A DNA stretch of 64,000 nt from Candidatus Thiothrix sulfatifontis (lineage in GTDB: Bacteria > Pseudomonadota > Gammaproteobacteria > Thiotrichales > Thiotrichaceae): contig CP094685.1 of the NCBI GenBank assembly GCA_022828425.1, forward strand, positions 3,016,046 through 3,080,045, read 5' to 3'. A program made the translations under genes and the position numbers. The first letter of the stretch is position 1. Every line of letters starts with the position of its first letter. Below the pieces are notes generated by a model, which ran no database searches, had not been told where the DNA came from, and was given only the letters and a program-made list of their open reading frames with translations. Below, piece after piece: positions 38,096 through 54,045 of the stretch.

Positions 38096-38102
38096 TTGGG
38101 AT

Positions 38103-39133: not shown

Positions 39134-40243
39134 GTATCATAAGTGCATAACCCGTTAATCGAGACGGGGTGCGGCTTTCCTCATAAGGTCAGAGGCAAGA
39201 TGTGGTAAAAAGCATCCCGAAAAACCACTAACGGGAGAGCCTTATGGCATACGGACATCTTACCTCTGAAGAGAGGCATTATATCGAAACACGGCACAAG
39301 ATGGAGGATTCCACCACGGCAATAGCGTTAGCACTGGGACGCAGCCAATCGACGATTAGTCGTGAACTGGGTCGTAACCGAGGTCAACGTGGCTACCGTC
39401 ACAAGCAAGCGCACAACAATGCTCAGTGCCGCCATGCAGAGAAGCCGAAAGCGGTCAAGTTAACCCCGGCACTGACGCTCAGCATTGATAGCCTGCTGGA
39501 ACAGCAATGGAGTCCTGAACAGATCAGCGGCAGACTAAAAGGAGAAGGCAAGGTGTGTGTTTGCCATGAAGCCATTTACCAGCATGTCCTGAAGGACAAG
39601 CGTGCGGGCGGCAAGCTGTACCTGAACCTGCGCCGCCATGCGAAGACCTACCGTAAGCGTTATGGCAGCACCACGGGCAGTGTCAAAGGCATCCCCAACC
39701 GGGTGGACATTGACGAACGCCCAGAGGTGGTCAATCAGCGTGAACGGCTAGGCGACTGGGAAGCGGACACCATGATTGGCAAGGGACACCAAGGCGCATT
39801 AGTGACACTGGACGAACGCAAATCCAAGCTACGTCTGGCGTTCCCAGTAGCGAACAAGACTGCTGAAGCGGTGACGTGCAGCATTATCACCTTGCTGTCC
39901 GGCTTCAAGGAGTGGGTACACACGCTCACCTTCGATAACGGCAAAGAGTTTGCCAAACATGAGCAAGTTGCCCAAGCCATTGGGTGCAAAACGTATTTCG
40001 CCAAGCCCTACCATTCGTGGGAGCGCGGGCAAAATGAGAACGCCAATGGGCTGTTACGCCAATACTTCCCCAAAGCAATGGGATTGTTGGACGTGACGAC
40101 TCGACAGGTGTTGGAGGCTGTACATAAACTCAACAACAGACCAAGGAAATGTCTGGGGTTCAAGACACCTTACGAGGTGTTCCGCGAGCTATCCGGCATG
40201 GATGCTGAAAAGTTGGTGGGTTATGCACTTATTACTTGAATTC
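39128..40243 (+). mobile_element. IS30-family insertion sequence
   Basis: Terminal inverted repeats GAATTCGTATCATAAGTGCATAACC (39128-39152) and its partner at 40219-40243 (21/25 match). The transposase stop lies inside the right IR. Confidence 0.8.
39244..40239 (+). CDS. IS30-family transposase
   Basis: 331 aa. N-terminal HTH (LTSEERHYIE...GRSQSTISRELGRN) and DDE region (WEADTM...TFDNGKEF...NENANGLLRQYFPK). Confidence 0.9.
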   Translation: MAYGHLTSEERHYIETRHKMEDSTTAIALALGRSQSTISRELGRNRGQRGYRHKQAHNNAQCRHAEKPKAVKLTPALTLSIDSLLEQQWSPEQISGRLKGEGKVCVCHEAIYQHVLKDKRAGGKLYLNLRRHAKTYRKRYGSTTGSVKGIPNRVDIDERPEVVNQRERLGDWEADTMIGKGHQGALVTLDERKSKLRLAFPVANKTAEAVTCSIITLLSGFKEWVHTLTFDNGKEFAKHEQVAQAIGCKTYFAKPYHSWERGQNENANGLLRQYFPKAMGLLDVTTRQVLEAVHKLNNRPRKCLGFKTPYEVFRELSGMDAEKLVGYALIT

Positions 40244-40396
40244 ACCAATCATTTTTCCCTTGATCGTGTGCCAAACCGTTTGATAGCCAGTATTGCCAGC
40301 CTAAAATATGAAAAATGGCAAGGTGAGGCTGTGGTGATAACAGAGAAACACGTTGAGGATTTAACAATAAATCAAGACCTTAACGCACCTTTTTAG
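40244..40396 (+). pseudogene. Cargo gene of element A, 3-prime part
   Basis: TNHFSLDRVPNRLIASIASLKYEKWQGEAVVITEKHVEDLTINQDLNAPF, in frame with 38471-39127 across the IS. Confidence 0.55.
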
Positions 40397-40639
40397 CCAA
40401 TACCGGATAGACCCCCCTAAAAAACTTGCACTCTATCCGGTCGGTAGAATCGGGGTTGTGTTGTTCAATGTTCCGTGGAGAACGCCAATCGAAACGATAG
40501 GCGAAAAAAAACCCCGAAACCGTATGAAGCGGCGGCGGGGTAGAAACAATTTTACGGAAGCAATTTTATGATACTCACCAGACACACACAACCAAAACCG
40601 AATGATTCCTCGAAATCATCCCAAAAAACAAAACACACC

Positions 40640-40684
40640 TTATCCGCTGATAAGTTGACCGAATCCCCGACTTTCCCCCATACT
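40640..40684 (+). promoter_or_regulatory. Conserved sigma70-like promoter with adjacent TTATC-N4-GATAA inverted repeat (element A)
   Basis: TTATCCGCTGATAA (40640-40653), -35 TTGACC (40655-40660), 18-nt spacer, -10 CATACT (40679-40684). Identical block at 53752-53796. Confidence 0.5.
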
Positions 40685-40690
40685 GCCCCT

Positions 40691-40784
40691 GTCGATGCAA
40701 AGCACCGGCAAACAGCAAAATTCTGGGACTATCATCCCTATATCTGGCGGCAAACCCGCCTTGACGACGCAGCGGGATTTTTTA
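40691..40784 (+). ncRNA. Candidate ~90-nt leader or small RNA ending in an intrinsic terminator with a competing upstream hairpin (element A)
   Basis: Hairpin 1 is GGCGG(40746-50)/CCGCC(40756-60). Hairpin 2 is CCCGC(40755-59)/GCGGG(40772-76) plus T6. The two share bases, so they are mutually exclusive. Confidence 0.4.
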
Positions 40785-40936
40785 TGCCCGTAGACTTCGC
40801 ACACAGCGGCTTTATGCCGGGTATGCGTGGAATACAACATGGTGTAAACCGAAACAAGCGCGTCGTGCTCCAGATAGACGATGATAGTACCCGGCAATTT
40901 TTGCCAAATATCAAAACTAAATCTGGAGCGGTCATC

Positions 40937-41284
40937 ATGACAGCAATCACTATGGGCAACACTGCCCGCACTCTATCGGCGTACCTGCCACACCTCCCTA
41001 TTGCACTGCCCAAAGCAGGCAAAAAACGCACCCCGATCACCGACCTTGTGTATGAGTCGACGCAAACCGGCCTGATCGTGTATCAGGACAACATCCCCGT
41101 CGCATGGGTATACCCCGGATACCACAAAGGTCAAATCGCCAACCAACCCGCAACGTGCAACTTTGTCGACGTCGCCTTTCACCGTCGCACCGAACACGGG
41201 GTGAACCTCGAAACACACGATTTTCTCACCCTGCAAGAAGCCCTCGACTTCGTGCGCACCACCTTCGGCGGAGGTGTGCAATGA
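40937..41284 (+). CDS. Conserved hypothetical protein (115 aa)
   Basis: ATG 40937 after GGAG. ORF track extends to 40568 across the promoter/terminator region. 5 differences from the B copy over 115 aa. Confidence 0.5.
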   Translation: MTAITMGNTARTLSAYLPHLPIALPKAGKKRTPITDLVYESTQTGLIVYQDNIPVAWVYPGYHKGQIANQPATCNFVDVAFHRRTEHGVNLETHDFLTLQEALDFVRTTFGGGVQ

Positions 41285-41514
41285 TCAGTTCGATAGACCG
41301 TGTTATCAGCATTGGGAAAGTGTACGAAGACCTCGAAAACCTACACAACGTGATGCAAGTGTGTGTGGATTCGATGCAATACCACAACGTCCTAGAGCTG
41401 GACAGTGTTAAGCAGGTGTTGATCAGCGCAACCGAAAAAGCCTATGCCGCCTACAACGCCGCGAAAGAAATTCATGATGAGATGCTGGCGGAATTAAAGG
41501 ACGGTGAAAAATGA
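41281..41514 (+). CDS. Hypothetical protein (77 aa), element A specific
   Basis: ATG overlaps the upstream stop (ATGA), with a GGAGGTG RBS. Position equivalent to the non-homologous 54390-54620. Confidence 0.45.
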   Translation: MISSIDRVISIGKVYEDLENLHNVMQVCVDSMQYHNVLELDSVKQVLISATEKAYAAYNAAKEIHDEMLAELKDGEK

Positions 41515-41822
41515 GCACGAAACTCGACACCAGCCCCAACCGCGCAACCCGTCGCATCCGTCGCAACCGTGACGCCATCCGCCGGGCGCAAATCATTGAG
41601 CAAATCCCGTCCTACACCGTCAACGGCGATCCGCTGCTAACCGAAAAAGAGTCGGCGGCCTATCTCGCAGTCGGCGCCCGCACGCTCGAAGCATGGCGTC
41701 ACCGCCACCCCGACCGCCTGCCCCACATCCGTGTCGGGCGCAACGTGCGTTATCGCCGCTCGGTGCTCGATAACTACCTGCAAGCCCAAACCGTCACCGA
41801 CGGGCGCGGGGTACGCAAATGA
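41511..41822 (+). CDS. AlpA/excisionase-type HTH DNA-binding protein with basic N-terminal extension
   Basis: 103 aa. LLTEKESAAYLAVGARTLEAWRHRHPDRLPHIRVGRNVRYRRSVLDNYL is an HTH_17/AlpA-like pattern. 4 substitutions from the B copy. Confidence 0.7.
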   Translation: MSTKLDTSPNRATRRIRRNRDAIRRAQIIEQIPSYTVNGDPLLTEKESAAYLAVGARTLEAWRHRHPDRLPHIRVGRNVRYRRSVLDNYLQAQTVTDGRGVRK

Positions 41823-42022
41823 GCCACCCACAAACCAACCTGACCCCGGCACTCGATTTGCACCCCGATCACATCGCCCTGACAGATGCGGAATGGATAG
41901 AGCGCCTAAGCAAAACCCATGCAGAAATCAAGCGCCGCCAGCAACTGGCGCAACCCGACAACAGTTATGCATTTTCTGCATACCACTATGTGCGTTGGAT
42001 TAACCGGAGCGTAGGACTATGA
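41819..42022 (+). CDS. Hypothetical protein (67 aa), homologue of 54925-55128
   Basis: Translationally coupled. Shared motifs include KRRQQLA-PDN-Y-FSA and RWINRSV. Confidence 0.45.
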   Translation: MSHPQTNLTPALDLHPDHIALTDAEWIERLSKTHAEIKRRQQLAQPDNSYAFSAYHYVRWINRSVGL

Positions 42023-42363
42023 ACGAACCAACATTATCACTAGTCAAGCTCGCACAAGAGCTTTGCAACAGCGGGCGCACCCCACAAGAGGCCGTCAGTG
42101 GTTTGCTGGTGGCAGCGCTCAATAATAAGAGCCTCGAATACCTGCAAGGTGCAGACGTTAATCAAGCCATTGCGGAACTGGAGCGCCGTTTCAGCGGCTA
42201 CCTGATCAAGCCATGGGAAAGCGCTCTACAAGAATTAGGCTATGCCCTCGAATGCATCCGCCAATTAGTAGCACTGGCAGAAGAGCACGAAACCGACGCG
42301 GCGGTGTGTGTACGCGTCGCGCAACGTTTCTTGAAAAAGTTTGAGGGCAACAACCATGGCTAA
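42019..42363 (+). CDS. Hypothetical protein (114 aa)
   Basis: Coupled ORF between the 67-aa gene and rep. Its stop overlaps the rep start. Confidence 0.4.
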   Translation: MNEPTLSLVKLAQELCNSGRTPQEAVSGLLVAALNNKSLEYLQGADVNQAIAELERRFSGYLIKPWESALQELGYALECIRQLVALAEEHETDAAVCVRVAQRFLKKFEGNNHG

Positions 42364-43639
42364 GCGTTTCGACCGTGACGAATGGGAAGATTCCCTCACC
42401 CGCATTAACCGCATTCTGGCAGAGAAACACGCCCGCGAAAGCGGCGCGTTTTCCGCTGTTTCTGGCGACGCTGGCGGCGCTGAATATCCCCCGTACTGTA
42501 ATACGGGGGGTTATGACGATTCCCACAAAATCAGCAAGTTACAAAAAACCGAAAAATCCTATGACCTGAATGTGACGGCTGTTGACTGGTTGCGCCTAAC
42601 CACTACCGACCTTGATGCATACGCGCAAACCATGGGCGATTTGCTGGCAGATGGCGGCCTTTTCAACCATGCCGATATGGATGTTAAATGGACAGATAAA
42701 GGAATGCACGGCTATGACTCTTCAGCCGCTATCCTGATATGGAAGGACAACGACTACCTGACAGTAGGCCACATTGCCAAGGCTGAATCAGGCCGCAATA
42801 AAGGCGGATTGCTGGAGCTAACCGGAACAGGTTGCAAAGTGCTGCAACTCGAACACCCTGCTTTGTGGCTGGAATTGTTCAACTTGTTGCAGTACCACGA
42901 CTGGCGAATTTCCCGCGTTGACGTGGCGTTAGACCTGCATGGCGAATACGCCCGCGAAATGGGCTACACCGTGCCAAGCCTGCTACTGCAAGCCAAGAAT
43001 AGCGGCCTGTTCCAGTCCGACCGCCTACGCAATCCCAACATGAAGCAATCATTTAGCATGGCGGGCGATTGGTCGGATTTAGCCATTGGCAACATTACCC
43101 CGCACACCTATGACCCGTTAGAGCATTGCCCGGCGGGTTTGACTGCCTATGTCGGCAACCGTAAAACAGCCGATGATTTTTTTCGGGTATACGAAAAAGG
43201 CAAAGAGCTATTAGGTGGCATGGCGGAACCCGAAAGCATAGATCGGGGCTGGATCCGCATTGAGCACGAAATGAGCCGCAAAGCCACCGGGCGCAATATC
43301 CCGCTTGAAGTCATGTTACGGCCTGATGCGTACTTTTGTGAAAGCCGATCAGGTGTGCGCACAATTCTCGATGCAGTCCGTGAACGCCAGTCATTAGAGG
43401 CCGCGCTTCAGTACCAGCGTGAACAATTCAAACGTGAGAAAGGCTTGCTGCTATTCAAAAAGCTGCATTGGGCGCGTCATTCTTACGGGCGCTTAGTGCG
43501 CACGCTGGTTGAACAAGGCATGGAAGCGAGCGAAATTGTCGATATGCTTTCTCGCATCAGCGGCTTAAAAGAATTCGTATTCGATCTGGCAGACCCACCA
43601 CAAGAATACGCGCGGTTTCGGGTAGAGGTGGCTGTATGA
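42356..43639 (+). CDS. Rolling-circle replication initiation protein, Rep_trans-like family
   Basis: ATG 42356. VDWLRLTT, HGYDSS, LELTGTGC, ISRVDVALD, GLTAYVGNRKTADDFFRVYEKGKE and WIRIEHEMSRKA fit the replication initiation factor (pT181 RepC/CTX RstA-type) pattern. Confidence 0.7.
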   Translation: MAKRFDRDEWEDSLTRINRILAEKHARESGAFSAVSGDAGGAEYPPYCNTGGYDDSHKISKLQKTEKSYDLNVTAVDWLRLTTTDLDAYAQTMGDLLADGGLFNHADMDVKWTDKGMHGYDSSAAILIWKDNDYLTVGHIAKAESGRNKGGLLELTGTGCKVLQLEHPALWLELFNLLQYHDWRISRVDVALDLHGEYAREMGYTVPSLLLQAKNSGLFQSDRLRNPNMKQSFSMAGDWSDLAIGNITPHTYDPLEHCPAGLTAYVGNRKTADDFFRVYEKGKELLGGMAEPESIDRGWIRIEHEMSRKATGRNIPLEVMLRPDAYFCESRSGVRTILDAVRERQSLEAALQYQREQFKREKGLLLFKKLHWARHSYGRLVRTLVEQGMEASEIVDMLSRISGLKEFVFDLADPPQEYARFRVEVAV

Positions 43640-43712
43640 GCAAGATATTAAAATTTACCTTTAGACTCGTTGGAACAACTTCCCACGCTCAAAAAACCGG
43701 AGGTGATGCGGT

Positions 43713-43925
43713 ATGAAAACCGATTATTACATCAACCTAGATAACGAAGTTGTACAGGTAGAAATGCTCGAATGGCTCGAAGATGGTACGTACTTTGACG
43801 AAGATCAAAACGATGATGAAAGCATTCTTGTGGAACTGCCATGTTCTCGTTATTGCATTGGTGATGAAGATGGCGACGGCATCAGCGTATGGCTAAATGA
43901 GGATATGCAGGAGGTGATTCTGTGA
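43713..43925 (+). CDS. Hyper-acidic 70-aa protein
   Basis: 21 Asp/Glu versus 2 Lys/Arg. GGAGGTGAT RBS. 10 differences from the B copy at 57643-57855. Confidence 0.55.
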   Translation: MKTDYYINLDNEVVQVEMLEWLEDGTYFDEDQNDDESILVELPCSRYCIGDEDGDGISVWLNEDMQEVIL

Positions 43926-44305
43926 ATCCACTACTTTCACCCGCTGAGCAAACGCACCTCGACACCGTGCGCAACCGTCAGCACTTCCCTGATGACCTTG
44001 ACCGCACCCCGGCAAAAGCAGGCGTAAGCGATTTTGCCCACTGGTTAGCGCGTCTCGATTATCACGCGGCGTTTGTCCGTGTGGTGCAATTGCTGGTGCT
44101 GCTGAGCATCGCTTTCGCCATCTATAAGCTGGTGCTGATCTGGGCTGAATACCCCGGCGTCGCATTCCTGCCATTCCTCAATATGCACACCCCGCTGATG
44201 ATTTTCAGCGGATTATTCACAGCAACTTACATTCAGCATCGGGAATCCGAAGTTGTGGCAATTATCGCCCTGCTTTCCACGATGATGAATTCATTACTGG
44301 TTTAA
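43922..44305 (+). CDS. Small membrane protein (127 aa)
   Basis: GTG start after AGGAGG. 2-3 TM segments. N-terminus NPLLSPAEQTHLDTVR is homologous to 58067-58423 (NPLLTPREQAHVASVR). Confidence 0.5.
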   Translation: MNPLLSPAEQTHLDTVRNRQHFPDDLDRTPAKAGVSDFAHWLARLDYHAAFVRVVQLLVLLSIAFAIYKLVLIWAEYPGVAFLPFLNMHTPLMIFSGLFTATYIQHRESEVVAIIALLSTMMNSLLV

Positions 44306-44315
44306 GGAGAAGATC

Positions 44316-46014
44316 ATGAGACAACAGCAAAATCGAAGCCAAGAAAAAGAAATCATGGAAAAGCAATTAGAAGTACACAAAAAGCAAGACCGGCGCGGCG
44401 GTATGCTGCTGAGTTTGGGCGGTGTGTTGACCGCGTTAATGTACTTCATGTTCGAGAAGCACCTGTTTTTGGGTGAAGCAATCACGTGGTCGGCCTATTT
44501 CAACGAATGGCATTCGGCACTGGATTTTATCCTGATGTTTGTCATCGTGGTGATGAGCGCAATATTTTTGGCATGGGTAAAACATCATGCATACCTGCAC
44601 TTCGGTCTATACGGTTCCATCGGCCTGATCGTGTTCACCGTCATCGGGTTTGCCCTGTTCGCGGAATTCTTCAGTAGCAGCGCCAGCCAAGACACCAAAA
44701 GCCGGGTACTGCTGCAAAATGATCAAGCCTATCAGTCGACGCTCGCACCCGTCGCCAGCATCGCCCCTGCCCTGCCCACTGAGCAGCAACGCGGCGGCAA
44801 TTGCCAAGGCCGAACAGATGTATGCTCGCTGCATGGCGAACCTAGGCAAGCCGGGTTACAAGCATTGCGATGGCGACAAAGCCACCTTGAGCAGCCTCAA
44901 AGCCTCTGATGCAGCGGCGCTACAGGCAGCAAAAGAAATTGCAATACAGACCAACGCCGCCACCACCAAAATGAACCACGACCGTCAGGACAAGCTCAAA
45001 GCCGATTCATACAACGCGGTCATCGTCTCGATTGCGCAAGCGATCGGCTCACTCACTGTCACCGACTACAAGGACAACATCAAAGCCGCAACCGTGCTCA
45101 CCATGTTGATCGTGGCAATTGCTTTTGAAATCCTCCACCACTTCTTAGCTCACGCGAAAGAACGCGCTCAAAATGCCGTCTATGCAATTGAACTAGAACT
45201 AGCCAAGTACGAAGGCTCGGCACTGCCCCCAACATCCGACAACGTGACACCTGACAATGACGGCGCATTCAAACAGACCGGCGTCGGGTTCACTGCCAAC
45301 CTCGGCAAATCGCCAGCCGCGAACCACTCACCTACCCCGGCGGAAACGGACAAGCCCCTGTTCAAATACCAGCAAAAACCACCAGCCGATCACAGTGGTT
45401 TCGTTGGCTTCGTTAATACCAACAACCTGAAAAAATCCGCCAGTGACGAACGCCCATTCTACGGATTCAAGGATGCAAAAAAGCAATCAGCACTCGATGT
45501 GCTTAACCTTGCTCACGGATCCGAAGACCGGAAAACCCGCGAAAATCGCACCGTCAACAAAGAGCACTTGCCTACCCTGCCAGCCACTCAGAAAACAGGT
45601 TTGACCGGCATCAGAAATCCGGCATTAGGCAAAAATGAAGCGGTTTATGAGCTACCTCTCGCTGCTGAAAATCCACGTGTAATTACACGTGTACCGGATG
45701 GCGAAACCACGCTCGATAACGGCCTACAGGCGGCGCAAAAAGCACGTGTAATTACACGTGTACCCGACAACGAATCCACACTCGATAGCGACCTGTACGA
45801 AGAACTGAAAGCACGTGTAATTACACGTGAAATCAGTCCAACATTCAGACCTATCATTCAGTGGTTAGCGGGTAAGGCCGTCGGCAAAAACACCCAGCAT
45901 CGGCAACTGCTGGCAGCGGCGGCGCTCGACCGGATGCACCGTGAAAACGTGTTGACCCTGAACCCAGCGAACGACGGTTCGGGCATCAAAAAAGCCAAGT
46001 ACATTGTGGTCTAG
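44316..46014 (+). pseudogene. Large membrane-anchored protein, apparent +1 frameshift near 44778 (homologue of 58435-60744)
   Basis: ORFs 44316-44909 and 44650-46014 together are colinear with the intact B protein. The frame switch falls within about 44700-44790, with the single base A at 44778 the best-fitting point. Confidence 0.6.
45674..45829. repeat. Three perfect 18-bp palindromes CACGTGTAATTACACGTG at 69-bp period inside the coding sequence
   Basis: Copies at 45674-45691, 45743-45760 and 45812-45829. Each encodes RVITR within a 23-aa protein repeat. Confidence 0.9.
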
Positions 46015-46028
46015 CCGCAATCACCAGA

Positions 46029-46053
46029 GCGGGCAGGGTAGCACCTGACCCGC
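46029..46053 (+). other. Conserved strong hairpin GCGGGCAGG-GTAGCA-CCTGACCCGC downstream of the large gene
   Basis: The same 25 nt occur at 60753-60777 while the flanks differ. No T-run follows directly. Confidence 0.6.
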
Positions 46054-46137
46054 TCCAACCTGACCACCAATCGAACCGGGCAAGCCCCGGTTTTTTCATG
46101 CCAGAATAGGCAACAACTCACCAACGGAGAAAACGAC

Positions 46138-46344
46138 GTGTATCAAGACTGGAAACAATGGGCGCGGCTAACCTATGCCGCGATTCTGCTGCTATTGGTG
46201 TGGAATCTGCTACAGCCGGAAATGATTCAGCAAGCATTGCACTGGGAAGGCCAGCGCGAAATGGGAAAGAATGCCGCGATGTTTCAGACCATCGTGCTAG
46301 TGGTAGCGGCTGGCTTGATGATACCCAAAGGCAAAGCGACTTGA
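46138..46344 (+). CDS. Small membrane protein, probably truncated relative to 60860-61156
   Basis: GTG start after GGAG. YQDWKQWAR... is homologous to the B copy, but a stop comes after 68 aa. The tail IIGFTIAML is recoverable in another frame. Confidence 0.35.
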   Translation: MYQDWKQWARLTYAAILLLLVWNLLQPEMIQQALHWEGQREMGKNAAMFQTIVLVVAAGLMIPKGKAT

Positions 46345-46474
46345 ACCGCTCGACACTGACAAACCGCTTAATGATTCTATGCAGTTCGCGCTCGGACTGG
46401 TTGTGTCGATAATCGGGTTCACCATCGCCATGCTGTGATGTTTCCGCATCGCGAATCAAAACCTGATCAAGCAA

Positions 46475-46502
46475 AGCCGTGTCATCTGATGCGGCTTTTT
46501 TT
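46475..46502 (+). terminator. Intrinsic terminator near the element A right end
   Basis: AGCCG-N11-GCGGCT followed by T7. Same family as the terminators at 34079, 34641, 49532 and 61181. Confidence 0.65.
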
Positions 46503-46556
46503 GCCCATAGGGTAGGGCGGTAATCTCTTGCGGCTTGTCCCTGCAAAAATCGCAGG

Positions 46557-46576
46557 GATGACCCCAACATGACCCC
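46557..46576 (+). promoter_or_regulatory. Putative arm-type sites (GATGACCCC, CATGACCCC), element A right end
   Basis: Two motifs 11 bp apart, 57 bp before the tRNA-Leu-like core. Same geometry at 61264-61283 before the tRNA(CAT). Confidence 0.5.
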
Positions 46577-46633
46577 GACCAAAACGGGCAAAAATAATGC
46601 AGCGGGTAAAATGGCGTAACGCCTTGAAAGAAT

Positions 46634-46689
46634 TGGTGCCCGGAGCCGGACTCGAACCGGCACGCTGTTACCAGCGAGAGATTTTAAGG
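46634..46689 (-). other. 3-prime fragment of a tRNA-Leu(TAA)-like gene (anticodon loop to CCA), candidate attP core at the A/B junction
   Basis: Minus strand reads CCTTAAAATCTCTCGCTGGTAACAGCGTGCCGGTTCGAGTCCGGCTCCGGGCACCA: long variable arm, T arm, acceptor 3-prime strand. No 5-prime half is present. Confidence 0.75.
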
Positions 46690-46809
46690 GCATAAGTAGA
46701 CTGATAACCGCATAGAACCCATATATTAACTCGCTGAAAGCCAGATCGAGACCAGCCAAGCACCAAACCCGCTACACCCCGACCAACACCGCAAAAGTAC
46801 GCGCCACAA

Positions 46810-46841
46810 CATGACCCCGAAAAAAACGCAAACATGACCCC
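46810..46841 (+). promoter_or_regulatory. Putative integrase arm-type sites (2 x CATGACCCC, 23-bp spacing), element B int side
   Basis: CATGACCCC at 46810 and 46833, same arrangement as 31004-31035. Confidence 0.5.
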
Positions 46842-46898
46842 GGCGGCGGTTTGCGCTACCATCAAAACCGAACCAAAACCAAACATTCAGGAATTAGC

Positions 46899-48180
46899 AT
46901 GGCTAAAAAAACGGCTGAAAAAATCAACTTCACCAAGACAGTGCTAGATGCGCTCGAACCACCCAGCAATGGGCGACGTTACGTATACGACTCAAAAGTG
47001 AATGGTTTGCTGCTGATGATCACCCCACCGGGTACAAAATCGTTTCAGGTGCGGAAACACCTCGAAGGCAGGGCGGCGCGTATCACCTTTGGGCGGTTCC
47101 CTGACATGACCGTGACGCAAGCGCGGGAAAAAGCCCTCGCAGAACTCTCGCTGATAGCCACCACCCGCCAAACCAGTTACCAGCAAAAGCAGGGCAGGGC
47201 AGAGGTACAGCAATTCGCCAACATGACATTGGGGAAAGTGTTCAAGGACTATCTCACCTCACACAAGAATCTGAAGCCCGCTACCATTGCCGATTATGAG
47301 CGTTCTATCCGCGTCGGCTTTCCCGACTGGGAGTCACTGCCGCTGAACAGCATCAGCCGCGATATGGTCGAAGAGCGTCACCGCGAACGCAGCCAACACT
47401 CCGAAGCACGGGCGAATAACGAAATGCGCGTGTTACGTAGCATTTTCAATTATGCCGCTGAGGAATACTTTGATGACAGCGGGCAACCGCTGATTAAGTC
47501 CAACCCGGTCAAGCGCCTCTCGCATAGCCGCGCATGGAACCGGGTAGACCGCAAACAGACCATTATCAAAAATGACGAACTCCCGATCTGGTACGAAGCC
47601 GTGAACTCACTCCCGGAATGGTACGGCGGCGCACTGGCTGAGAAGGCGCGGGTCTATTTCCTGCTAACCCTGTTCAGTGGCTACCGGCGCACGCGAGTCC
47701 AGCACCTTGCTGTGGGAAAATATCGACCTGATCAACAACACGATCAGGCTGGAAGACACCAAAAACCACCAAGCGCACACACTGCCGCTCACCACCTACA
47801 CCCGCGATCTGTTGACACAGTGGCAAGCCCGCAGCGGGCAGGGCAGCGGCTTAGTATTCCGGGCGACTGACAACACCTCGCCCCTGTCCAGCGTGGAAGA
47901 AGTGATTAAAGCCATCCGTGCCAGGACAAACATTCAATGGGCAATGCACGACCTGCGGCGCACGTTCGCCACCACTGCCGAAAACATCGGTGTTCGCGGT
48001 TACACCCTGAAGCGCCTGATCAACCACAAGACCGGCGCGGCGGACGTGACCGGCGGTTACATCGTGACCGACGTGGAAAGCCTCAGAGAACCCATGCAAA
48101 CCATCACCGACAAGCTCTTAAGCCTGACATCCGGTAAACTATCCGCATCCAAGACCGCACCGGCGGCAATCAATACCTGA
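46899..48180 (+). pseudogene. int: P4-type tyrosine integrase with a 1-nt insertion (about 47694)
   Basis: ORFs 46851-47870 and 47677-48180 are together colinear with intA. B reads GCGCACGCGAGTCC where A reads GCGCACGGAGTCC. Confidence 0.75.
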
Positions 48181-48189
48181 AAAGGAAGT

Positions 48190-48735
48190 TTGGAAATGAC
48201 CGACACCCCGAAAAAAACCTTAAGCATTACGCGCAAACCTGCTAACAGTGGCCCGGTAAATGCCACCGCTGGCACAATCCAACGCAGCGGCAAACGCATC
48301 ATCAGGCGTGACGAACTGCCGCAAGTGCAGCGCATCCCCGCACCCAAACCCAAACCAGCCGCCACCGCCAAACCCAAAAAGCCGCGCAAGCCACCCGCAC
48401 CTAAGAAGCAAGTCACACCACCGTCACAACTGAAAATCCGCGAATTGAACGACCGCCTAAACGCCTTCCGCGTCTGGTTCGACTTCCAACCGCTGGCAAT
48501 CGGCATTGAAAAGGAAATTTTCCGACTGGTGAACGAGGAGCACTTCCCCGGCGCAAGCAAAAGGGTTGTGCAAAAGCTGCTGAGGATGCACGTTAATCAC
48601 GGTGTCTACCTGCAAAACCTCAAACACGGCACAGACCGCTATCAGCTCGACGGCACACCCGACGGCACGATTGATGACTATCAGCGCCAGCTCGCAACCG
48701 ACACCCTGACAACACGCTTGCAGGGTAAGTGCTGA
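48190..48735 (+). CDS. ProQ/FinO-domain RNA-binding protein (element B copy)
   Basis: 181 aa, 4 substitutions relative to 32371-32916. Confidence 0.7.
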   Translation: MEMTDTPKKTLSITRKPANSGPVNATAGTIQRSGKRIIRRDELPQVQRIPAPKPKPAATAKPKKPRKPPAPKKQVTPPSQLKIRELNDRLNAFRVWFDFQPLAIGIEKEIFRLVNEEHFPGASKRVVQKLLRMHVNHGVYLQNLKHGTDRYQLDGTPDGTIDDYQRQLATDTLTTRLQGKC

Positions 48736-48804
48736 ATATTGATTGTTGACAGATTCAGGATAACGGCGCGTAATGTGCATACTGAATACATACAAGGCGA
48801 ACGT

Positions 48805-49095
48805 ATGAGCGTTGAATGGGACAAGGAAAAGACGAATAAGAACAACAAGGAAAAGTTGAATGAAGCCAAACACAGCATCAGGTTGTCAGATGTTGAACCC
48901 GTGCTGTATGACCCCATGGGCGTTACATCCGAAGACGTGACGGCTGAGGGAGAGCATCGCTTTATTACTGTAGGTGCTGATATGTTTGGACGTGTATTGA
49001 CAGTTGTTTACACATGGCGCGGCGACAACATCCGGCTTATATCGGCACGTAAAGCAACCAACAAGGAGAAACGACATTATGAAAGCGGAATATGA
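48805..49095 (+). CDS. brnT: BrnT-like (DUF497) toxin
   Basis: ATG 48805 within ORF 48739-49095. VEWDKEK...NEAKHSIRLSDVEPVLYD...RFITVG...VLTVVYTWRGDNIRLISARKATNKEKRHY fits the BrnT pattern. Confidence 0.65.
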   Translation: MSVEWDKEKTNKNNKEKLNEAKHSIRLSDVEPVLYDPMGVTSEDVTAEGEHRFITVGADMFGRVLTVVYTWRGDNIRLISARKATNKEKRHYESGI

Positions 49096-49342
49096 TTTAA
49101 CAGACGGCAAACGCGGCGCGGTGATTCCCGCGAACGGAAAAACACGCATCACCATTTGGATTGATGACGATATTATCGAAGCATTCCGCCAACGTGCTGA
49201 AGAGGAGGGTATAGGGTATCAGACGCTAGTGAATCAAACCCTGAGAGCCAGCATGACCACGGGTAAGGCACTGGATGAAGTTGTTTTGCGTCGTATCATT
49301 CGTGAAGAGATGCAGGCAGGGAACTTGCAACACGCGGCATAG
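49079..49342 (+). CDS. brnA: BrnA-like antitoxin
   Basis: ATG 49079 overlaps the brnT end by 17 nt. KTRITIWIDDDIIEAFRQRAEEEGIGYQTLVNQTLR is the typical BrnA motif. Confidence 0.7.
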   Translation: MKAEYDLTDGKRGAVIPANGKTRITIWIDDDIIEAFRQRAEEEGIGYQTLVNQTLRASMTTGKALDEVVLRRIIREEMQAGNLQHAA

Positions 49343-49353
49343 GTTAGGTAACG

Positions 49354-49677
49354 ATGAGCCTAGACAAAGCCGTTAAGCACGGCAAAGAGCGACGCAAGCC
49401 GCATACAGGCGGCAAACTCATTGCTAATTCATGCAGGAATCACGGCGGTTGTCCGTGGTGCGAAGGCAACCGCCTACACAAGCACAAGCGCCGCGAACCC
49501 ATACCAGACGATCACATCATTGACCCCGAAGAGCCGCACCTGATGCGGCTTTTTTTTGCCTGCTATTCCCCGGCCTGCTTGCGTGTCAAGGTCGGGCGAA
49601 GCCCGTTCACTTTAACCTTGACTCGCTTTCTGAAAGTAAACTACTGCAAGGGGTGCAACATGGTTGCACCCCACTAG
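49354..49677 (+). CDS. Small Cys-rich basic protein whose 3-prime end reads into repeat R3
   Basis: N-terminal 55-60 aa (KHGKERRKPHTGGKLIANSCRNHGGCPWCEGNRLHKHKRRE) look genuine. From 49531 the ORF translates the terminator hairpin and repeat. Confidence 0.4.
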   Translation: MSLDKAVKHGKERRKPHTGGKLIANSCRNHGGCPWCEGNRLHKHKRREPIPDDHIIDPEEPHLMRLFFACYSPACLRVKVGRSPFTLTLTRFLKVNYCKGCNMVAPH

Positions 49678-49767
49678 CCTAGCGGCAATGAGCGACAAAA
49701 AGAACACTGCCGATTATCGTTGCCCAAGATATGCGCATGACCGCACGGTTACAGGGCAAGTGCTGAA
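49531..49767 (+). repeat. Cassette-junction repeat R3 (long form)
   Basis: Terminator AGCCGC-N7-GCGGCT-T8, nested hairpin 49585-49622, and perfect palindrome GGGGTGCAAC-ATG-GTTGCACCCC at 49650-49672. Its ends match R1. Confidence 0.7.
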
Positions 49768-49837
49768 TGAAATAGAATTTTCTTTATGGAAAATACAACT
49801 ATAATGGATGCTATCAACCCACTAAGGAGGATGCAGA

Positions 49838-50104
49838 ATGACCACCGCAACATTACGCACCGTCGGTAATTCCGTCGCTGTGGTAATCCCTAAGCAATGG
49901 CTATCCATGTTAGGGCTGGAAGCAGGCGCAAAAGTAGAAATGAGCATCGAAGGCGGCAAGCTCACATTACAGCCAAAATCAGCGACTAGACGCAAAAAAT
50001 ACAAATTAGCAGACCTGCTAAGTAAGTGTGACCCATCCGCACCTATCCCAACAGCCGTAACCGAATGGGACAACCTACCAGCGACGGGGAATGAAGTATG
50101 GTAA
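49838..50104 (+). CDS. MazE/ChpBI-like AbrB-fold antitoxin
   Basis: 88 aa with an AAGGAGG RBS. LRTVGNSVAVVIPKQWLSMLGLEAGAKVEMSIEGGKLTLQP is a SpoVT/AbrB swapped-hairpin motif. Confidence 0.75.
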   Translation: MTTATLRTVGNSVAVVIPKQWLSMLGLEAGAKVEMSIEGGKLTLQPKSATRRKKYKLADLLSKCDPSAPIPTAVTEWDNLPATGNEVW

Positions 50105-50449
50105 AGCGCGGCGGGTTTGAGCGTGGCGATATTGTGAGGGTGAGTTTTAACCCAACTGTGGGGCGTGAGATGCAAGGCGATATGCGCCCCGCATTGGTGC
50201 TTTCGACCCGTGAGTTCAATAACACTGTCGGAACTGCTTTCGTTGCCGATTACCCAAGGCGGCAATCTTGCACGGGTAGCAGGGTTCGCCGTGCCATTAA
50301 TGGGCAGTGGAACGGAAACACAAGGCGTTATTCTGGTTAGCGCAGTAAGAACCCTTGATCTAGTGGGCAGAGGGGCGAAACGAATAGAAATCGCACCTGA
50401 TAGCATTGTCGATGAAGTGCTTGAAATACTCGCCGGTATCATCGAATAA
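50098..50449 (+). pseudogene. MazF/ChpBK-like toxin with a frameshift near 50245
   Basis: ORFs 50098-50340 and 50165-50449 together are colinear with E. coli ChpB (MVKRGGFERGDIVRVSFNP...RPALVLS... / ...PITQGGNLARVAGFAVPL...). One base is missing around GTTGCCGATT. Confidence 0.75.
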
Positions 50450-50591
50450 ATATGACAAAAGCCGCCAACATGCTGATCAGGCAGAACTGATGCACAAGTT
50501 GACGAAGGTATTACAAGCCCGCTTTGACACCTAATGTGAGGCGACAAGAGGCGGCATGTTATCCACTCGCTGAATAGTAAAACCTGAACAG

Positions 50592-50619
50592 AAAAAAGCC
50601 GGAGTTTATCCGGCTTTTT
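50592..50619. terminator. Bidirectional intrinsic terminator
   Basis: A6-GCCGG-AGTTTAT-CCGGC-T5. Confidence 0.7.
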
Positions 50620-50644
50620 GTTCTGTCAGTGGTCAGAAAATAGC

Positions 50645-50869
50645 TTATAAAAAGCCGCGTTTTCTGTTCGTGTCGGGGTGTGAAACCATTTTATTAGCAG
50701 TATTGCCCCGGAATTTCATGGATTCGGTTTTTCCGTCTACCAAGTGCTTTATGTCGGTAAGCAATTCTATGGCGGATTTCTCAGAGCAGCGGGTATGCAT
50801 CTGGATGATCTGCAACAGTTCAGTTTCTTGGTTGTTAAAGGTGTGTGTTGTCATTTTGGAAGATGGCAC
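50645..50869 (-). CDS. Small hypothetical protein (74 aa), copy 1 of a tandem duplication
   Basis: GTG 50869 after GGAG (an ATG 15 nt downstream is also possible). Predicted helical. No recognised domain. Confidence 0.4.
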   Translation of the reverse strand: MPSSKMTTHTFNNQETELLQIIQMHTRCSEKSAIELLTDIKHLVDGKTESMKFRGNTANKMVSHPDTNRKRGFL

Positions 50870-51149
50870 GTTATATGCTCCTGTTTTGGTTGAGTTGACA
50901 GTTAAAAAAAGCCACAGTCTTTCTGTCCGTGTCGGGGTGTGAAACCATTTTATTAGCAGTATTGCCTCGGAATTTCATGGATTCGGTTTTTCCGTCTACC
51001 AAGTGCTTTATGTCGGTAAGCAATTCTATGGCGGATTTCTCAGAGCAGCGGGTATGCATCTGGATGATCTGCAACAGTTCAGTTTCTTGGTTGTTAAAGG
51101 TGTGTGTTGTCATTTTGGAAGATGGCACGTTATATGCTCCTGTTTTGGT
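50649..51149. repeat. Tandem direct duplication, ~243-bp units with 259-bp period
   Basis: 50672-50890 matches 50931-51149, and I saw only one mismatch by eye (CCCCGG versus CCTCGG). Confidence 0.85.
50871..51128 (-). CDS. Small hypothetical protein (85 aa), copy 2 of a tandem duplication
   Basis: Identical to copy 1 over the first 67 aa except N68D, then a different tail. A perfect TATAAT lies upstream on the minus strand at 51160-51165. Confidence 0.4.
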   Translation of the reverse strand: MPSSKMTTHTFNNQETELLQIIQMHTRCSEKSAIELLTDIKHLVDGKTESMKFRGNTANKMVSHPDTDRKTVAFFNCQLNQNRSI

Positions 51150-51196
51150 TAAGGTTTTTATTATATCGCTTATTGTTAATAATGGATATGAATCTA

Positions 51197-51228
51197 ATTA
51201 GTGATATAATAAAATCTTTATAACTAAT
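51197..51228 (+). promoter_or_regulatory. Extended -10 promoter (TGATATAAT, 51202-51210) embedded in an imperfect inverted repeat, upstream of the 325-aa gene
   Basis: ATTAGTGATATAA...TTATAACTAAT arms. Lies in the 112-bp AT-rich divergent intergenic region. Confidence 0.45.
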
Positions 51229-51240
51229 GGATTTTAAACA

Positions 51241-52218
51241 ATGGAAAGGCTACAAGATTCTATCAATCTGATTGAAGAAAAAATTATCGGCATGGCGCAT
51301 ATTCAAGAATTGCCTCATGATTTATTTAGGAACGAAGGTGAGTTTTCAGTTATTAAGCGTGGGTTGATAATCTCAAACCATCCAGAGCTTGCAATACTTA
51401 ACAAAGAATTGGATAAAGCGGAGGTGGTGGCTATGGGCATATTCAGCAAAGCCGATAACAAACCGGCGGCTTATCAGTTTATAGCGGCATGTATAACAAA
51501 AGCAGAAATGCAAATCAAAAAAGCGGAAAATGCACGGCATGAAGCAGAGTTGGATATAAAGCGCAATGAAGCAGCGTATCAGGAAACCATAAGAAATCAC
51601 TCAGTTGCATTGTTAAGTGATTTTGAAATGAATGTGCAAGATATTGACCTTGCCGCGATCAACCAAACCGCAGCCCAGCAACGCCTAAAAAATGCGATTA
51701 ATGCCGTTAGCTTGCTAACGCTTAAGCTCAATATGTTTAAGAAGATCAAAGCAACAATATTCAAACAGGCATTAAAAGATTACTACGCTGAATTGTATGG
51801 CGAAGTAGAAGCAGAATTGAAGGTTTTCTCTGCAAGGTTTGATCAACTCAAAGCGGCGGCATTGTTGGCATTTCCCCAAGCATCAGCATTAGATGGTGGC
51901 GCACGGATTAACAGCGAAGTCGCTAACATGGTGGAAAGCCTACGCCATTTCCCCCCAAGTGATTACAAAACTATCTTGAATCGTACCATTGCGGAAAGCC
52001 TGACATCTGATCCTGATGAAAACGCTTTGCTTGACAAGATCGGCATCACCTACCAAGCCAAGTTGGATGAATGGAACACTAGCGGTCGTGAAGAACCAGC
52101 GAGTGACAATTTCCCAACGGCACAACAACGGGCGAAAGCGGAAAAGGTGAGTTCTGAAATACGTCAACAGAAGTACGGTGCAGACGCTCCACTGAGTCCA
52201 AGACCTTACGGCATTTAA
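51241..52218 (+). CDS. Hypothetical 325-aa protein, predicted largely alpha-helical/coiled-coil
   Basis: Long AT-rich ORF with heptad-like Ala/Lys/Glu-rich stretches. No domain recognised. Confidence 0.5.
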   Translation: MERLQDSINLIEEKIIGMAHIQELPHDLFRNEGEFSVIKRGLIISNHPELAILNKELDKAEVVAMGIFSKADNKPAAYQFIAACITKAEMQIKKAENARHEAELDIKRNEAAYQETIRNHSVALLSDFEMNVQDIDLAAINQTAAQQRLKNAINAVSLLTLKLNMFKKIKATIFKQALKDYYAELYGEVEAELKVFSARFDQLKAAALLAFPQASALDGGARINSEVANMVESLRHFPPSDYKTILNRTIAESLTSDPDENALLDKIGITYQAKLDEWNTSGREEPASDNFPTAQQRAKAEKVSSEIRQQKYGADAPLSPRPYGI

Positions 52219-52272
52219 CGCGGTTAGCGACTGCCTGACAGCTTGAAAATCATCCTGATTCACCGTCATCTG

Positions 52273-52303
52273 ACCGGCTTGCACGTACCAAGCCGGTTTT
52301 TTT
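52273..52303 (+). terminator. Intrinsic terminator after the 325-aa gene
   Basis: ACCGGCTTG-CACGTAC-CAAGCCGGT followed by T7. Confidence 0.75.
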
Positions 52304-52659
52304 GCTTTTGCAAGTAGCTGCATGGTTTTGCATAGAAACTGCAAGTGACAAAAACCGCATCCAGCCCTATACCGACAAGGGCTAGGGGTGCGTGACCCAG
52401 TGCATATTTTTCGTATAGACAATTTACGCGGGTGCGGTGGGGCAAGTGGGCGACGGTGCGGCGGGGAACATAACGGGGGGAAATGGGGAATGTTCACGGT
52501 ATTGAGAGGCGGAGTTCATCATTCAGAGCACGCTGGTTCATACATCGTGCAACCGATGACCCCAAGCAACCAGGTTGAGCGGATATTAAGCCCCGTTCAA
52601 ATCAACGGGCGACTTGATCTATACAGCCGATTGACAGACAGTCGACAACCTAGCGGCAT

Positions 52660-52738
52660 AAAAAAAGGGGAACTGTTGAGAGTTCCCCTTTTTACTTGTC
52701 CCCGTGGATGTTATGACGATCTGACAGGAGATAGAAGT
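52660..52738 (+). promoter_or_regulatory. Conserved hairpin plus leader preceding the element B cargo gene
   Basis: A-run, GGGGAAC/GTTCCCC hairpin, T-run, then TGACGATCTGACAGGAGATAGAAGT-ATG. Counterpart of 38391-38470. Confidence 0.6.
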
Positions 52739-53542
52739 ATGGTGCAACAGCAAGCAGGGTGCAACCAATGGGGTGGAGAACTTGGAGCAAAAGAGCGTGA
52801 GGATTTTCTAACGCTCCCCGAATGGCATAGAAAAATGTTTTTAAACTTTCCTTGTCCTTTGGATACAACAAATATAGAGCGAATCAGAAAAAGCTTGTCT
52901 GCTATGAACAATGGCAATGATGAAGCTAATATTTTATGGTCAAGAGCAATTCTTGCACGTCGGAACGCTTCAGAAGAAATGAGTATATTAATGCTTGCCT
53001 GCATGGTTTTTCCGATGCTCGAATATAGTGAGAGTAGGGTTACATTTGAGCATAACTTGTTGGAATCTTTAGGCGTTGAGTTAGTAATTTGGCAAGAAGA
53101 GCATCCGTACTTTGTCTTTGCATTTTCAGACGAAGAGTACGAACAAATAATTAGGAAACCGGTAAATGTAAACGATGTAAATAAGTTTGCCGAAACAAGA
53201 CCGCAAGGCTATGAAATTATTTTGGGTCTTACCGTGTGGCAAAATTATATTAAGGAAAGAAAAGAGGAATCAGAAAAATATAGGAAGTATTTATTAGGTG
53301 AGATTTTTGGAGACGATCAACAGTTATCACCCGAACTGCTACCAGAGCCAGCACCAGCAGCACCACCACAAAAAAAGAGCGCCTACCAACTCGAAAAAGA
53401 AAAATATCGCAGAGCTGTTTATCAGGAAGTAATGAACGAAATGGGCGTTTCAACCAAGAAAGGCATATTGGTAGAGGAGGCGGCGAAACGTGCGGAATGT
53501 AGCGAGAAAATGATTAGAGAAGCGCTAAAAGCTGGTGAGTAA
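52739..53542 (+). CDS. Cargo gene of element B: hypothetical 267-aa protein with C-terminal HTH-like segment
   Basis: ATG 52739 after AGGAG. ORF track extends to 52388 through a terminator hairpin. C-terminus GILVEEAAKRAECSEKMIREALKAGE resembles an excisionase/MerR-type HTH. Confidence 0.55.
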   Translation: MVQQQAGCNQWGGELGAKEREDFLTLPEWHRKMFLNFPCPLDTTNIERIRKSLSAMNNGNDEANILWSRAILARRNASEEMSILMLACMVFPMLEYSESRVTFEHNLLESLGVELVIWQEEHPYFVFAFSDEEYEQIIRKPVNVNDVNKFAETRPQGYEIILGLTVWQNYIKERKEESEKYRKYLLGEIFGDDQQLSPELLPEPAPAAPPQKKSAYQLEKEKYRRAVYQEVMNEMGVSTKKGILVEEAAKRAECSEKMIREALKAGE

Positions 53543-53751
53543 TCGTTTGGAGGTTTTTGGTAATTTTTGGTAGTTTTTGGTGATTTACGCGACTATAAGT
53601 AAAAAATCGGCACAATAAAAAAAGGCCAGCAATGCCGCTGGCCTTGGAAAAAAGTACAGCCGATATGATAACCAGACACCAACAAGCATTCAATCACCAA
53701 AACACGAAACCGAATGATTCCTCGAAATCATCCAAAAAAACCAAACACATC

Positions 53752-53796
53752 TTATCCGCTGATAAGTTGACCGAATCCCCGACTTTCCCCCATACT
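53752..53796 (+). promoter_or_regulatory. Conserved sigma70-like promoter with TTATC-N4-GATAA repeat (element B)
   Basis: Same 45-bp block as 40640-40684. Confidence 0.5.
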
Positions 53797-53802
53797 GTCC
53801 CT

Positions 53803-53896
53803 GTCGATGCAAATCATCGGCAAACAGCAAAATTCTGGGACTCTTATCCCGACACTAGGCGGCAACACCGCCAACACGATGCAGGCGGTTTTTTTT
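53803..53896 (+). ncRNA. Candidate ~90-nt leader or small RNA with competing hairpins and terminator (element B)
   Basis: GGCGG(53858-62)/CCGCC(53868-72) versus CCGCC(53868-72)/GGCGG(53884-88) plus T8. Confidence 0.4.
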
Positions 53897-54045
53897 CGTC
53901 TGTAGACTACGCAAGCGGTTTTATGCCGGGTATGCGTGGACTACCAGAGGAAGCAATTCCGAATAAGCGCGTCGTGTTCCTAGTGAGCGATAAGAGTACC
54001 CGGCAATTTTTGCCAAATCTTAAAACTCAATTAGGAGCGGTCAAC

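Follow-up and report, generated by a model that had tools for sequence, protein, structure and literature searches.

A 30.5-kb island at a tRNA(CAT) gene of Candidatus Thiothrix sulfatifontis is probably a co-integrate of two related elements with different tRNA targets

Here we describe a 30.5-kb island in the chromosome of Candidatus Thiothrix sulfatifontis, contained in a 64-kb window (the whole stretch of 64,000 nucleotides (nt) that was analysed, contig CP094685.1, positions 3,016,046 to 3,080,045; all coordinates below are counted from its first letter). The island lies in an rpoD-linked tRNA(CAT) gene and comprises two integrase-bearing elements, A and B, which meet at an attachment (att) site built around part of a different gene, tRNA-Leu(TAA). 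Comparative sequence evidence indicates that the island is probably a co-integrate of two related elements with different site specificities, brought together by a homologous crossover. Such a crossover is preferred to site-specific integration because a proQ-like tract is nearly identical in A and B and because both parental arrangements are found in relatives. The source genome is the circular metagenome-assembled genome (MAG) of strain KT; its MinION reads were assembled with Flye, the circle was closed manually on the assembly graph, and Pilon was used for polishing (PMC9319827).

The A/B junction (46557-46842) begins with the distal arm-type sites of A, GATGACCCCA (46557-46566) and CATGACCCCG (46568-46577), which lie on the + strand at -77 and -66 from the core and represent the P' arm of a Leu-type attP. 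After a spacer of 56 nt comes the attP(Leu) core (46634-46688, - strand). Its 55 nt make up the 3' part of tRNA-Leu(TAA), extending from the anticodon loop as far as CCA, and match four Thiothrix tRNA-Leu(TAA) genes exactly; on the + strand the core appears as the reverse complement of a class II tRNA with a CUUAAAA anticodon loop, a long variable arm, the T arm, and ACCA. The B-proximal arm follows (46689-46842, + strand; the P arm of the Leu-type attP), consisting of a 121-nt spacer and two further copies of CATGACCCCG at 46810-46819 and 46833-46842, with the start of the integrase gene intB downstream at 46899. All of these parts had been proposed, in this order, in a preliminary description of the DNA; its proximal spacer of about 120 bp is borne out, while its distal spacer of 57 nt and Leu fragment of 56 nt need to be shortened to 56 and 55 nt, respectively. 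Exact copies of CATGACCCCG occur six times in the window, all within the three att regions, and with up to one mismatch there are 13 matches against 4.2 expected; 0 of 100 shuffles reach 13.

Both flanks of the junction are element DNA: the left resembles the distal arms found beside tRNA-Leu and tRNA(CAT), and the right resembles the proximal arms found upstream of int. The junction is thus an attP-type site for tRNA-Leu(TAA), as had been proposed, rather than an attL or attR. A second Leu fragment flanking one of the elements, which would have pointed to an ordinary attL/attR pair, was not found in the window with up to three mismatches allowed, and self-comparison of the window revealed no CAT fragment at the A/B junction. 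The site had also been called intact, a description that needs qualifying: the cognate integrase gene beside it, intB, is frameshifted by one inserted base (+1) at 47694, and the proximal spacer exceeds that of all 13 relatives examined by 10 nt. On the P side the first arm site accordingly lies at +121, compared with +111 at 13 of 13 other sites, a shift of about one helical turn; on the P' side, the distances of -77 and -66 match those of all attL sites.

The outer ends of the island carry a tRNA(CAT) core, as originally claimed. On the left, a displaced 45-nt 3' fragment of tRNA(CAT) (30848-30892, - strand), identical to 61340-61384, forms part of attR and is followed by the A-proximal arm (30893-31036, + strand; the P arm of a CAT-type attP), with a 111-nt spacer and arm sites at 31004-31013 and 31027-31036. 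On the right, the distal arm-type sites of B, GATGACCCTA and CATGACCCCG (61264-61284, + strand; the P' arm of the CAT-type attP), lie at -76 and -65 from the core, which here belongs to the regenerated full tRNA(CAT) of attL (61340-61415, - strand; identified by ARAGORN and scoring 73.9 bits with Rfam), located directly downstream of rpoD and the only complete tRNA in the window. In a sister MAG (GCA_974336385.1; locus L004), rpoD, tRNA(CAT), and the left flank of the window are contiguous, as expected of an empty site: its two alignments to the window overlap in the core alone, and the host terminator and left flank directly adjoin the tRNA. The two RpoD proteins are identical, and the DNA of this locus is 95-96% identical to that of the window. 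The same tRNA(CAT) site is also empty in metagenome X10, and because of these two empty sites we conclude that 30,492 bp were inserted at tRNA(CAT).

The identity of this tRNA merits a brief comment. The gene directly follows rpoD, a position shared by ileX in E. coli, and contains C4-G69, C5-G68, and G27.U43, which are marks of lysidine-modified tRNA-Ile2. The tRNA is probably tRNA-Ile(CAU) rather than tRNA-Met, and likely a single-copy essential gene, in which case restoration of all 45 nt by the element would be explained.

The Leu core can be traced to its source with some precision. A scan of the Genome Taxonomy Database (GTDB) representative genomes with the 55-mer returned eight exact matches, all in Thiothrix, of which four lie inside tRNA-Leu(TAA) genes called by ARAGORN (in T. 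caldifontis, T. fructosivorans, Ca. T. namsaraevi, and a Thiothrix MAG) and the other four are fragments upstream of related integrases. Identity to tRNA-Leu(TAA) ends exactly at the 5' edge of the anticodon loop. With the half-tRNA alone, the Rfam tRNA model in 5'-truncated mode gives 13.4 bits (E=1.2), below threshold, as it also is in context; the fragment is nonetheless a true 3' part of tRNA-Leu(TAA), as had been proposed, because all 55 nt match exactly inside called tRNA-Leu(TAA) genes. The TGGTG and GGACTCGAACC motifs reported to be common to the Leu and CAT cores are present in both, although they correspond to the discriminator with the CCA end and to the T arm, that is, to generic tRNA features with nothing specific to this site. 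Neither core occurs as an exact match in the viral contig collection searched.

Comparison with relatives establishes that tRNA-Leu(TAA) is the usual target of this element family. The 90%-identity cluster of IntA, the integrase of element A, contains 19 proteins, and in every member with readable upstream DNA (T. winogradskyi L022; T. subterranea L023, L024, and L028; Logan contigs L020, L021, L027, and L030; and L031 in the sister MAG) the Leu core lies exactly 111 nt before the first proximal arm site. A PfkB gene adjoins the Leu core wherever the contigs of these relatives reach far enough. More distant relatives (L005, L010, L011, L012) keep the same 111 nt at only about 50% spacer identity, and the A-proximal spacer of the window is also 111 nt long, leaving the A/B junction, at 121 nt, as the only departure. 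At three further loci (L006, L008, L009), the DNA directly after a complete tRNA-Leu(TAA) is a distal arm with homology to 46454-46633, and its arm sites lie at -76 and -65 from the tRNA end. The sister MAG, the nearest genome available, presents the reverse of the window, in that its CAT site is empty (L004) and its PfkB-linked tRNA-Leu is occupied (L031). Integrase relatives in IMG/VR begin at int and lack the upstream att sequence, and a scan of metagenome contigs yielded distant relatives only.

The geometry of these sites is worth noting in its own right. Across 13 sites, the 111-nt spacer is fixed while its sequence identity falls to 50%, so that length appears strict and sequence free. 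The inner distal arm site lies 65 nt from the tRNA 3' end in both Leu and CAT site types, and the distance from this site to the first proximal arm site, start to start, is 221 nt in CAT sites, 231 nt in Leu sites, and 242 nt at the junction, i.e., steps of roughly one helical turn. A constant 111 nt from the end of the anticodon loop fits an anticodon-centred crossover, and anticodon-centred att sites make up the larger of the two classes recognised by Islander (PMC4383910). A tRNA-Leu "array" in T. fructosivorans (L012, L010, L009) was considered as a parallel and rejected, as it is a 2.4-kb duplication with a host-type flank and no attP-type junction. Its two integrase-associated Leu fragments, L010 and L012 (NZ_JAFMPM010000008.1, at about 1.393 and 1.427 Mb), are 97% identical over 2.4 kb, of which 356 nt are left flank from outside the element; the arrangement is either a segmental duplication or a fault of assembly, and differs from a normal tandem.

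Which arms and which integrase types accompany which core was observed directly in other genomes. The true Leu-site element of the sister MAG (L031) has a proximal arm that is 79% identical to the B-proximal arm versus 71% to the A-proximal arm, and contigs from metagenomes X1 and X2 join the Leu core to a B-type arm and int. Two other contigs, from X2 (382 nt, depth 18) and X16 (679 nt, depth 11.6), run from 61179-61384 (96-97% identity) straight into 30893-31068 and 30893-31353, respectively (97%), and are attP(CAT) sites composed of the B-distal arm, the CAT core, and the A-proximal arm. The A-distal arm was not found beside the Leu core in X2, and for this reason X2 does not hold the same composite. 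At the CAT site of T. subterranea (L025), the element is A-like up to the equivalent of 32424 and B-like from 32546, continues into B-specific sequence (48737-49707, 93%), and ends with a B-distal arm by tRNA(CAT), the distal spacer there being nearly identical to that of B. In L020, L022, and L030, a Leu-type int is instead followed, after proQ, by an A-like HicAB-DUF29 module (89-96%). Separate parental arrangements are thus found at CAT sites (L025, L029) and at Leu sites (L020, L022, L030, L031). The switch between them falls within the proQ/finO-like tract, of which the A copy (32425-32879, + strand) and the B copy (48244-48698, + strand) are co-oriented and differ at one base over 455 nt.

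Integrase type also goes with core type. IntA and frameshift-corrected IntB differ at 28 of 422 residues (93% identity) and use the same arm motif, in agreement with the earlier view that they are close homologues. At 11 positions, IntA agrees with P0121 and P0133, the T. subterranea integrases located at the rpoD-tRNA(CAT) site (L025 and L029, a decayed element whose int is truncated at the 5' end), and differs from IntB and eight close relatives (P0122, P0127-P0132, and P0134), six of which were confirmed beside a Leu core or PfkB flank. These positions form two patches, one in the core-binding domain (residues 124-138: V124, A132, V133, S134, S138) and one just before the HDLRRT motif (residues 330-344: K330, T331, S339, G340, H342, E344). 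At the DNA level, int has two variable stretches, in which the T. subterranea CAT-site gene shows 92-98% identity to intA, compared with 82-91% to intB, and in which intB is closer to Leu-site relatives; at the sites that discriminate A from B in both patches, L025 is A-like and L031 B-like. The distribution of these residues suggests that the two patches set core specificity. A search of PDB sequences gave no usable alignment to lambda Int on which the patches could be placed. A 287-nt tract is identical in intA and intB apart from one extra base, and either the copies have exchanged sequence or the parents were already mosaic.

From these pairings, we infer a recombination event together with its position and order; it could have run in either direction. 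The CAT-type parent would have had an attP made of the B-distal arm, the 45-nt tRNA(CAT) core, and the A-proximal arm, with the order A-proximal arm, intA, proQ, B-side sequence, B-distal arm; the Leu-type parent would have had an attP made of the A-distal arm, the 55-nt tRNA-Leu(TAA) core, and the B-proximal arm, with the order B-proximal arm, intB, proQ, A-side sequence, A-distal arm. A single RecA-type crossover between them, most likely in the 455-nt proQ-like tract just downstream of int, would yield the observed island, whether a circular Leu-type element recombined into a resident CAT-type element or, equally, two circles fused and the fused circle was then integrated by IntA at tRNA(CAT). 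The attP(Leu) would survive whole at the A/B junction because it was not used in the crossover. The preliminary description had judged two sequential integrations at one site unlikely, and two integrations at tRNA(CAT) indeed cannot have produced this junction, its core being tRNA-Leu and the outer cores tRNA(CAT). Its proposal that homologous recombination brought a Leu-targeting element into a resident CAT-integrated one gains support from four independent lines of evidence: the integrase signatures, the B-type arm of L031, the attP(CAT) contigs, and parental arrangements in T. subterranea and T. winogradskyi that switch within the 455-nt tract. Relaxed core recognition, its other suggestion, is not needed and is mildly disfavoured, since the integrase signatures and arm pairings are opposite to what it predicts.

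Several points nevertheless weigh against the homologous crossover and should temper confidence in it. The event is reconstructed, not observed, and the tandem path and the frameshift are both provisional, depending as they do on a hand-closed Nanopore/Flye MAG. Modules in this family are heavily reshuffled (for instance, B cargo at 49348-54115 is 94-97% identical to the Leu-site T. subterranea element L023), so that parentage can be assigned only for the 1-2 kb surrounding the joint. L025 could be a deletion product of such a tandem and hence not a fully independent parent, and the attP(CAT) contigs could stem from a tandem junction or an excised composite instead of a single CAT-type element. 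Finally, the three CAT-site integrases may be one lineage, in which case the link between patches and specificity has an effective n of 1.

Among the alternatives, an assembly artefact is improbable but deserves consideration in view of how the MAG was closed. There would then be one chromosomal CAT-type element, and a free Leu-type circle, excised or replicating, would have been threaded into it at the shared int-proQ repeat during manual closure of the Flye graph; on paper the outcome is the same as that of a homologous crossover, and the junction would still be a genuine attP(Leu). The junction is indeed exactly as it would be in a circular form, and the frameshift of intB falls in a stretch that otherwise matches intA exactly, where a Nanopore assembly cannot be polished reliably with short reads. 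Against this, the ambiguous repeat is only about 455 nt long, and the differences between the copies on either side of it agree with independent relatives, so that the ambiguity should yield to reads of several kb; moreover, the two int-proQ copies were not collapsed, and the chromosomal genes in the window look intact. No public sequencing run matched more than about one third of the sampled words of the window.

Patch replacement, which we likewise regard as unlikely, would start from an ordinary CAT/CAT tandem with attP(CAT) at its junction. A Leu-type donor would then have supplied, through a double crossover or gene conversion, a new stretch that begins with the distal arm and extends across the 5' part of int. 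Homology for such an event exists on either side of the core, both at 46451-46587 versus 61158-61294 (92%) and in the int genes, and the mosaic identity of the latter, including the 287-nt identical tract, indicates that conversion between copies does occur. However, this route requires a prior tandem plus two crossovers with a third element, and leaves unexplained why A continues after proQ like the Leu-site relatives and B like the T. subterranea CAT-site element.

Heterologous site-specific recombination is, in our assessment, very unlikely. Here the attP(Leu) of a Leu-type circle (A) would have recombined with the attR(CAT) of a CAT-type element (B) already in place, within the anticodon-loop overlap (TTTTAAG versus TTATGAG), placing the Leu core by the B-proximal arm and the CAT core by the A-proximal arm through relaxed core recognition. 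A crossover located at the edge of the anticodon loop would reproduce the observed order precisely and leave the cores pure, the overlaps match at five of seven positions, the constant 111 nt from the end of the anticodon loop points to a crossover region there, and most Leu-site relatives have proximal arms with 70-76% identity to the A-proximal arm. Tyrosine recombinases, however, are normally blocked by two mismatches in an overlap of 7 bp. This mechanism further predicts a Leu-type A-proximal arm and intA and a CAT-type B-proximal arm and intB, and the opposite is found: IntB carries the Leu-site patches and IntA the CAT-site patches, the Leu-site element L031 has a B-type arm, and the attP(CAT) contigs contain the A-proximal rather than the B-proximal arm. 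All four tests (the L025 int, the 11 residues, L031, and the X2 and X16 contigs) thus favour homologous crossover and contradict recombination between attP(Leu) and attR(CAT). A T-loop crossover between cores sharing GGACTCGAACC was rejected, since all three cores are pure, without Leu/CAT chimeras.

If the island did arise by homologous crossover, its further behaviour can be sketched. Acting with an AlpA-like factor, IntA could use the CAT sites to excise the entire 30.5-kb unit, and a crossover between the two proQ repeats could set free a Leu-type circle, with a lone CAT-type element remaining. The attP(Leu) would be without a working cognate integrase if the frameshift is real, and the frameshifted intB offers a reason why the Leu-type element would have been kept only through homology, on which it would then depend for maintenance. 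Among the listed cluster members (identity down to about 64%, with six members outside the listing), no further family integrase from the source chromosome was found, which hints that the source tRNA-Leu site is not occupied by a close relative. A bolder and rather doubtful extension is that the island moves as a composite carrying two orthogonal sites, an internal attP(Leu) and, after excision, an attP(CAT), that homologous recombination between its repeats interconverts the tandem and a CAT element plus Leu circle, and that IntA and IntB represent a natural specificity switch from tRNA-Leu(TAA) to tRNA(CAT) of about 11 residues in two patches, with arm sites and intasome geometry kept. Were this true, int-defective satellites would gain a RecA-dependent route to maintenance and release.

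Tandem islands formed by repeated site-specific integration at one tRNA gene (accretion) are well known from Islander (PMC4383910) and SGI1 (PMC2297512); such arrays are common, and what defines them is that a fragment of one and the same gene recurs (PMC4383910; PMC2297512). The present island resembles them in having two integrase-bearing relatives head to tail, a displaced 3' tRNA fragment at one end, and a regenerated tRNA at the other, but its internal junction contains the 3' part of a different tRNA, with both arms intact, in place of a fragment of the outer tRNA. An Islander-type rule, which assigns each member its own fragment and its own integrase, would call this array one island; more generally, programs that find islands by matching a tRNA to the fragment displaced from it would read it as one island with two integrases and miss the foreign attP.

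A further precedent is found in classical phage genetics, where lambda phages defective in int or att form double lysogens by general recombination into a related prophage. There, as in the event proposed here, a Campbell-type single crossover keeps the attP of the entering circle whole, and a defective integrase leaves only that route. The new feature relative to classical lambda entry is that the partners differ in site specificity and the product has two kinds of att site; our case also draws on comparative sequence analysis, not genetics. The array is a well-documented example of known mobile-element behaviour, not a new principle. It suggests that site-specific accretion is not the only route to composite islands, and that homology allows related satellites differing in target to fuse into one unit with two attachment specificities; an element whose integrase is dead may survive in this way.

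The integrases of lambda and HK022 are near-identical heterobivalent proteins that use the same arm sites and whose core specificity can be switched by a few residues, e.g., N99 in the core-binding domain and H329 (PMC10863862). IntA and IntB similarly share arm motif and geometry, with differences clustered in the core-binding domain and in the catalytic domain before the HxxR box; unlike that pair, they would distinguish two tRNA genes with unrelated anticodon arms, and the role of their patches is predicted from sequence comparison. The most useful by-product of this work is the pair itself: natural, 93% identical integrases with the same arm sites and spacing, two tRNA targets, and differences in two short patches, offering a compact starting point for studies of tyrosine integrase retargeting, which is of practical interest for genome engineering. 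The two proteins have the domain architecture of P4/CP4-type integrases (Arm-DNA-bind_3, DUF4102) and target a tRNA 3' part, with an identity block from the anticodon loop to CCA; P4 itself has a short T-loop/3'-end core, and the crossover position in our elements is suggested only by the extent of the identity block and the 111-nt spacing. A class of tRNA-targeting islands with anticodon-centred att sites has been described (PMC4383910, where Williams 2002, PMC100330, is cited).

Relatives of A and B also shed light on the nature of the family. In L020, L022, L025, L027, L029, and L030, genes for a P2-type GPO scaffold, a major capsid protein, and a small terminase lie between a toxin-antitoxin module and alpA, with L030 encoding a ClpP-type protease instead. 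Together with int, an AlpA-like gene, and a GPA-type nickase, these fall within 12-15 kb, an equipment reminiscent of capsid-encoding satellites (cf-PICI-like and P4-like), and the genes of the relatives suggest a family of such satellites in Thiothrix. A and B hold int, HTH_17, and Rep genes; unlike in the relatives, Pfam and PHROG scans recognised no capsid, scaffold, or terminase genes in either.

Element A (approximately 30893-46633) encodes intA, a proQ-like protein, HicB, DUF29, a serine recombinase, an IS30-type transposase, an AlpA-like protein, and a Rep_trans initiator, and element B (approximately 46689-61339) encodes intB, a proQ-like protein, low-GC cargo without a known match, an AlpA-like protein, and a GPA-type nickase; six homologous blocks are common to the two. 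The intact tyrosine integrase gene intA (31093-32361, + strand; 422 amino acids (aa); Pfam Arm-DNA-bind_3 and Phage_integrase) has the CAT-site signature. The Leu-type integrase gene intB (46899-48180, + strand) is disrupted: alignment with intA places the extra base at 47694 in the codons of the catalytic arginine box (YRRTE), and the gene is split into open reading frames (ORFs) at 46851-47870 and 47677-48180. This base sits in the 287-nt tract otherwise identical to intA, and the frameshift may be a real mutation or an assembly error. The AlpA/Xis-like HTH_17 genes of A (41511-41822, + strand) and B (54617-54928, + strand) are 96% identical. The replication initiators are of different types, Rep_trans in A (42341-43639, + strand; Pfam PF02486, phrog_453) and a P2 GPA-type nickase in B (55324-57519, + strand; Pfam PF05840, phrog_91).

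Several smaller features were recorded along the way. The cargo of B at 50000-53600 has a GC content of 43-45%, compared with about 52%, and contains three ORFs of 241-384 aa without a match in Pfam, PHROGs, or PADLOC, the latter two likewise giving no match for the cargo ORFs in general; the same region includes a 234-nt tandem duplication (50661-50894 and 50920-51153, 99%). In A, imperfect inverted repeats of 46 nt (35220-36168) flank a serine recombinase gene (35292-35864), and the IS30-type transposase gene (39244-40239) has 30-nt inverted repeats (39124-40247). Downstream of the Rep_trans gene, within the ORF at 44650-46014, the 18-nt perfect palindrome CACGTGTAATTACACGTG occurs three times, 69 nt apart, inside 69-nt tandem repeats (45661-45848), making these repeats candidate iterons or a candidate origin. 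A hairpin-forming 30-mer, AACTGCCCTACACGCGCGTGTAGAGGGGTT, is found twice near the 3' end of the 769-aa ORF of B (60384-60470, 57 nt start to start) and may be a nick site or origin for the GPA-type initiator. Lastly, the terminator-like hairpin GCCGCAnCTGATGCGGCTTTTTT occurs five times (at 34071, 34633, 46470, 49524, and 61176), always at the borders of exchangeable modules, and may mark preferred recombination points.

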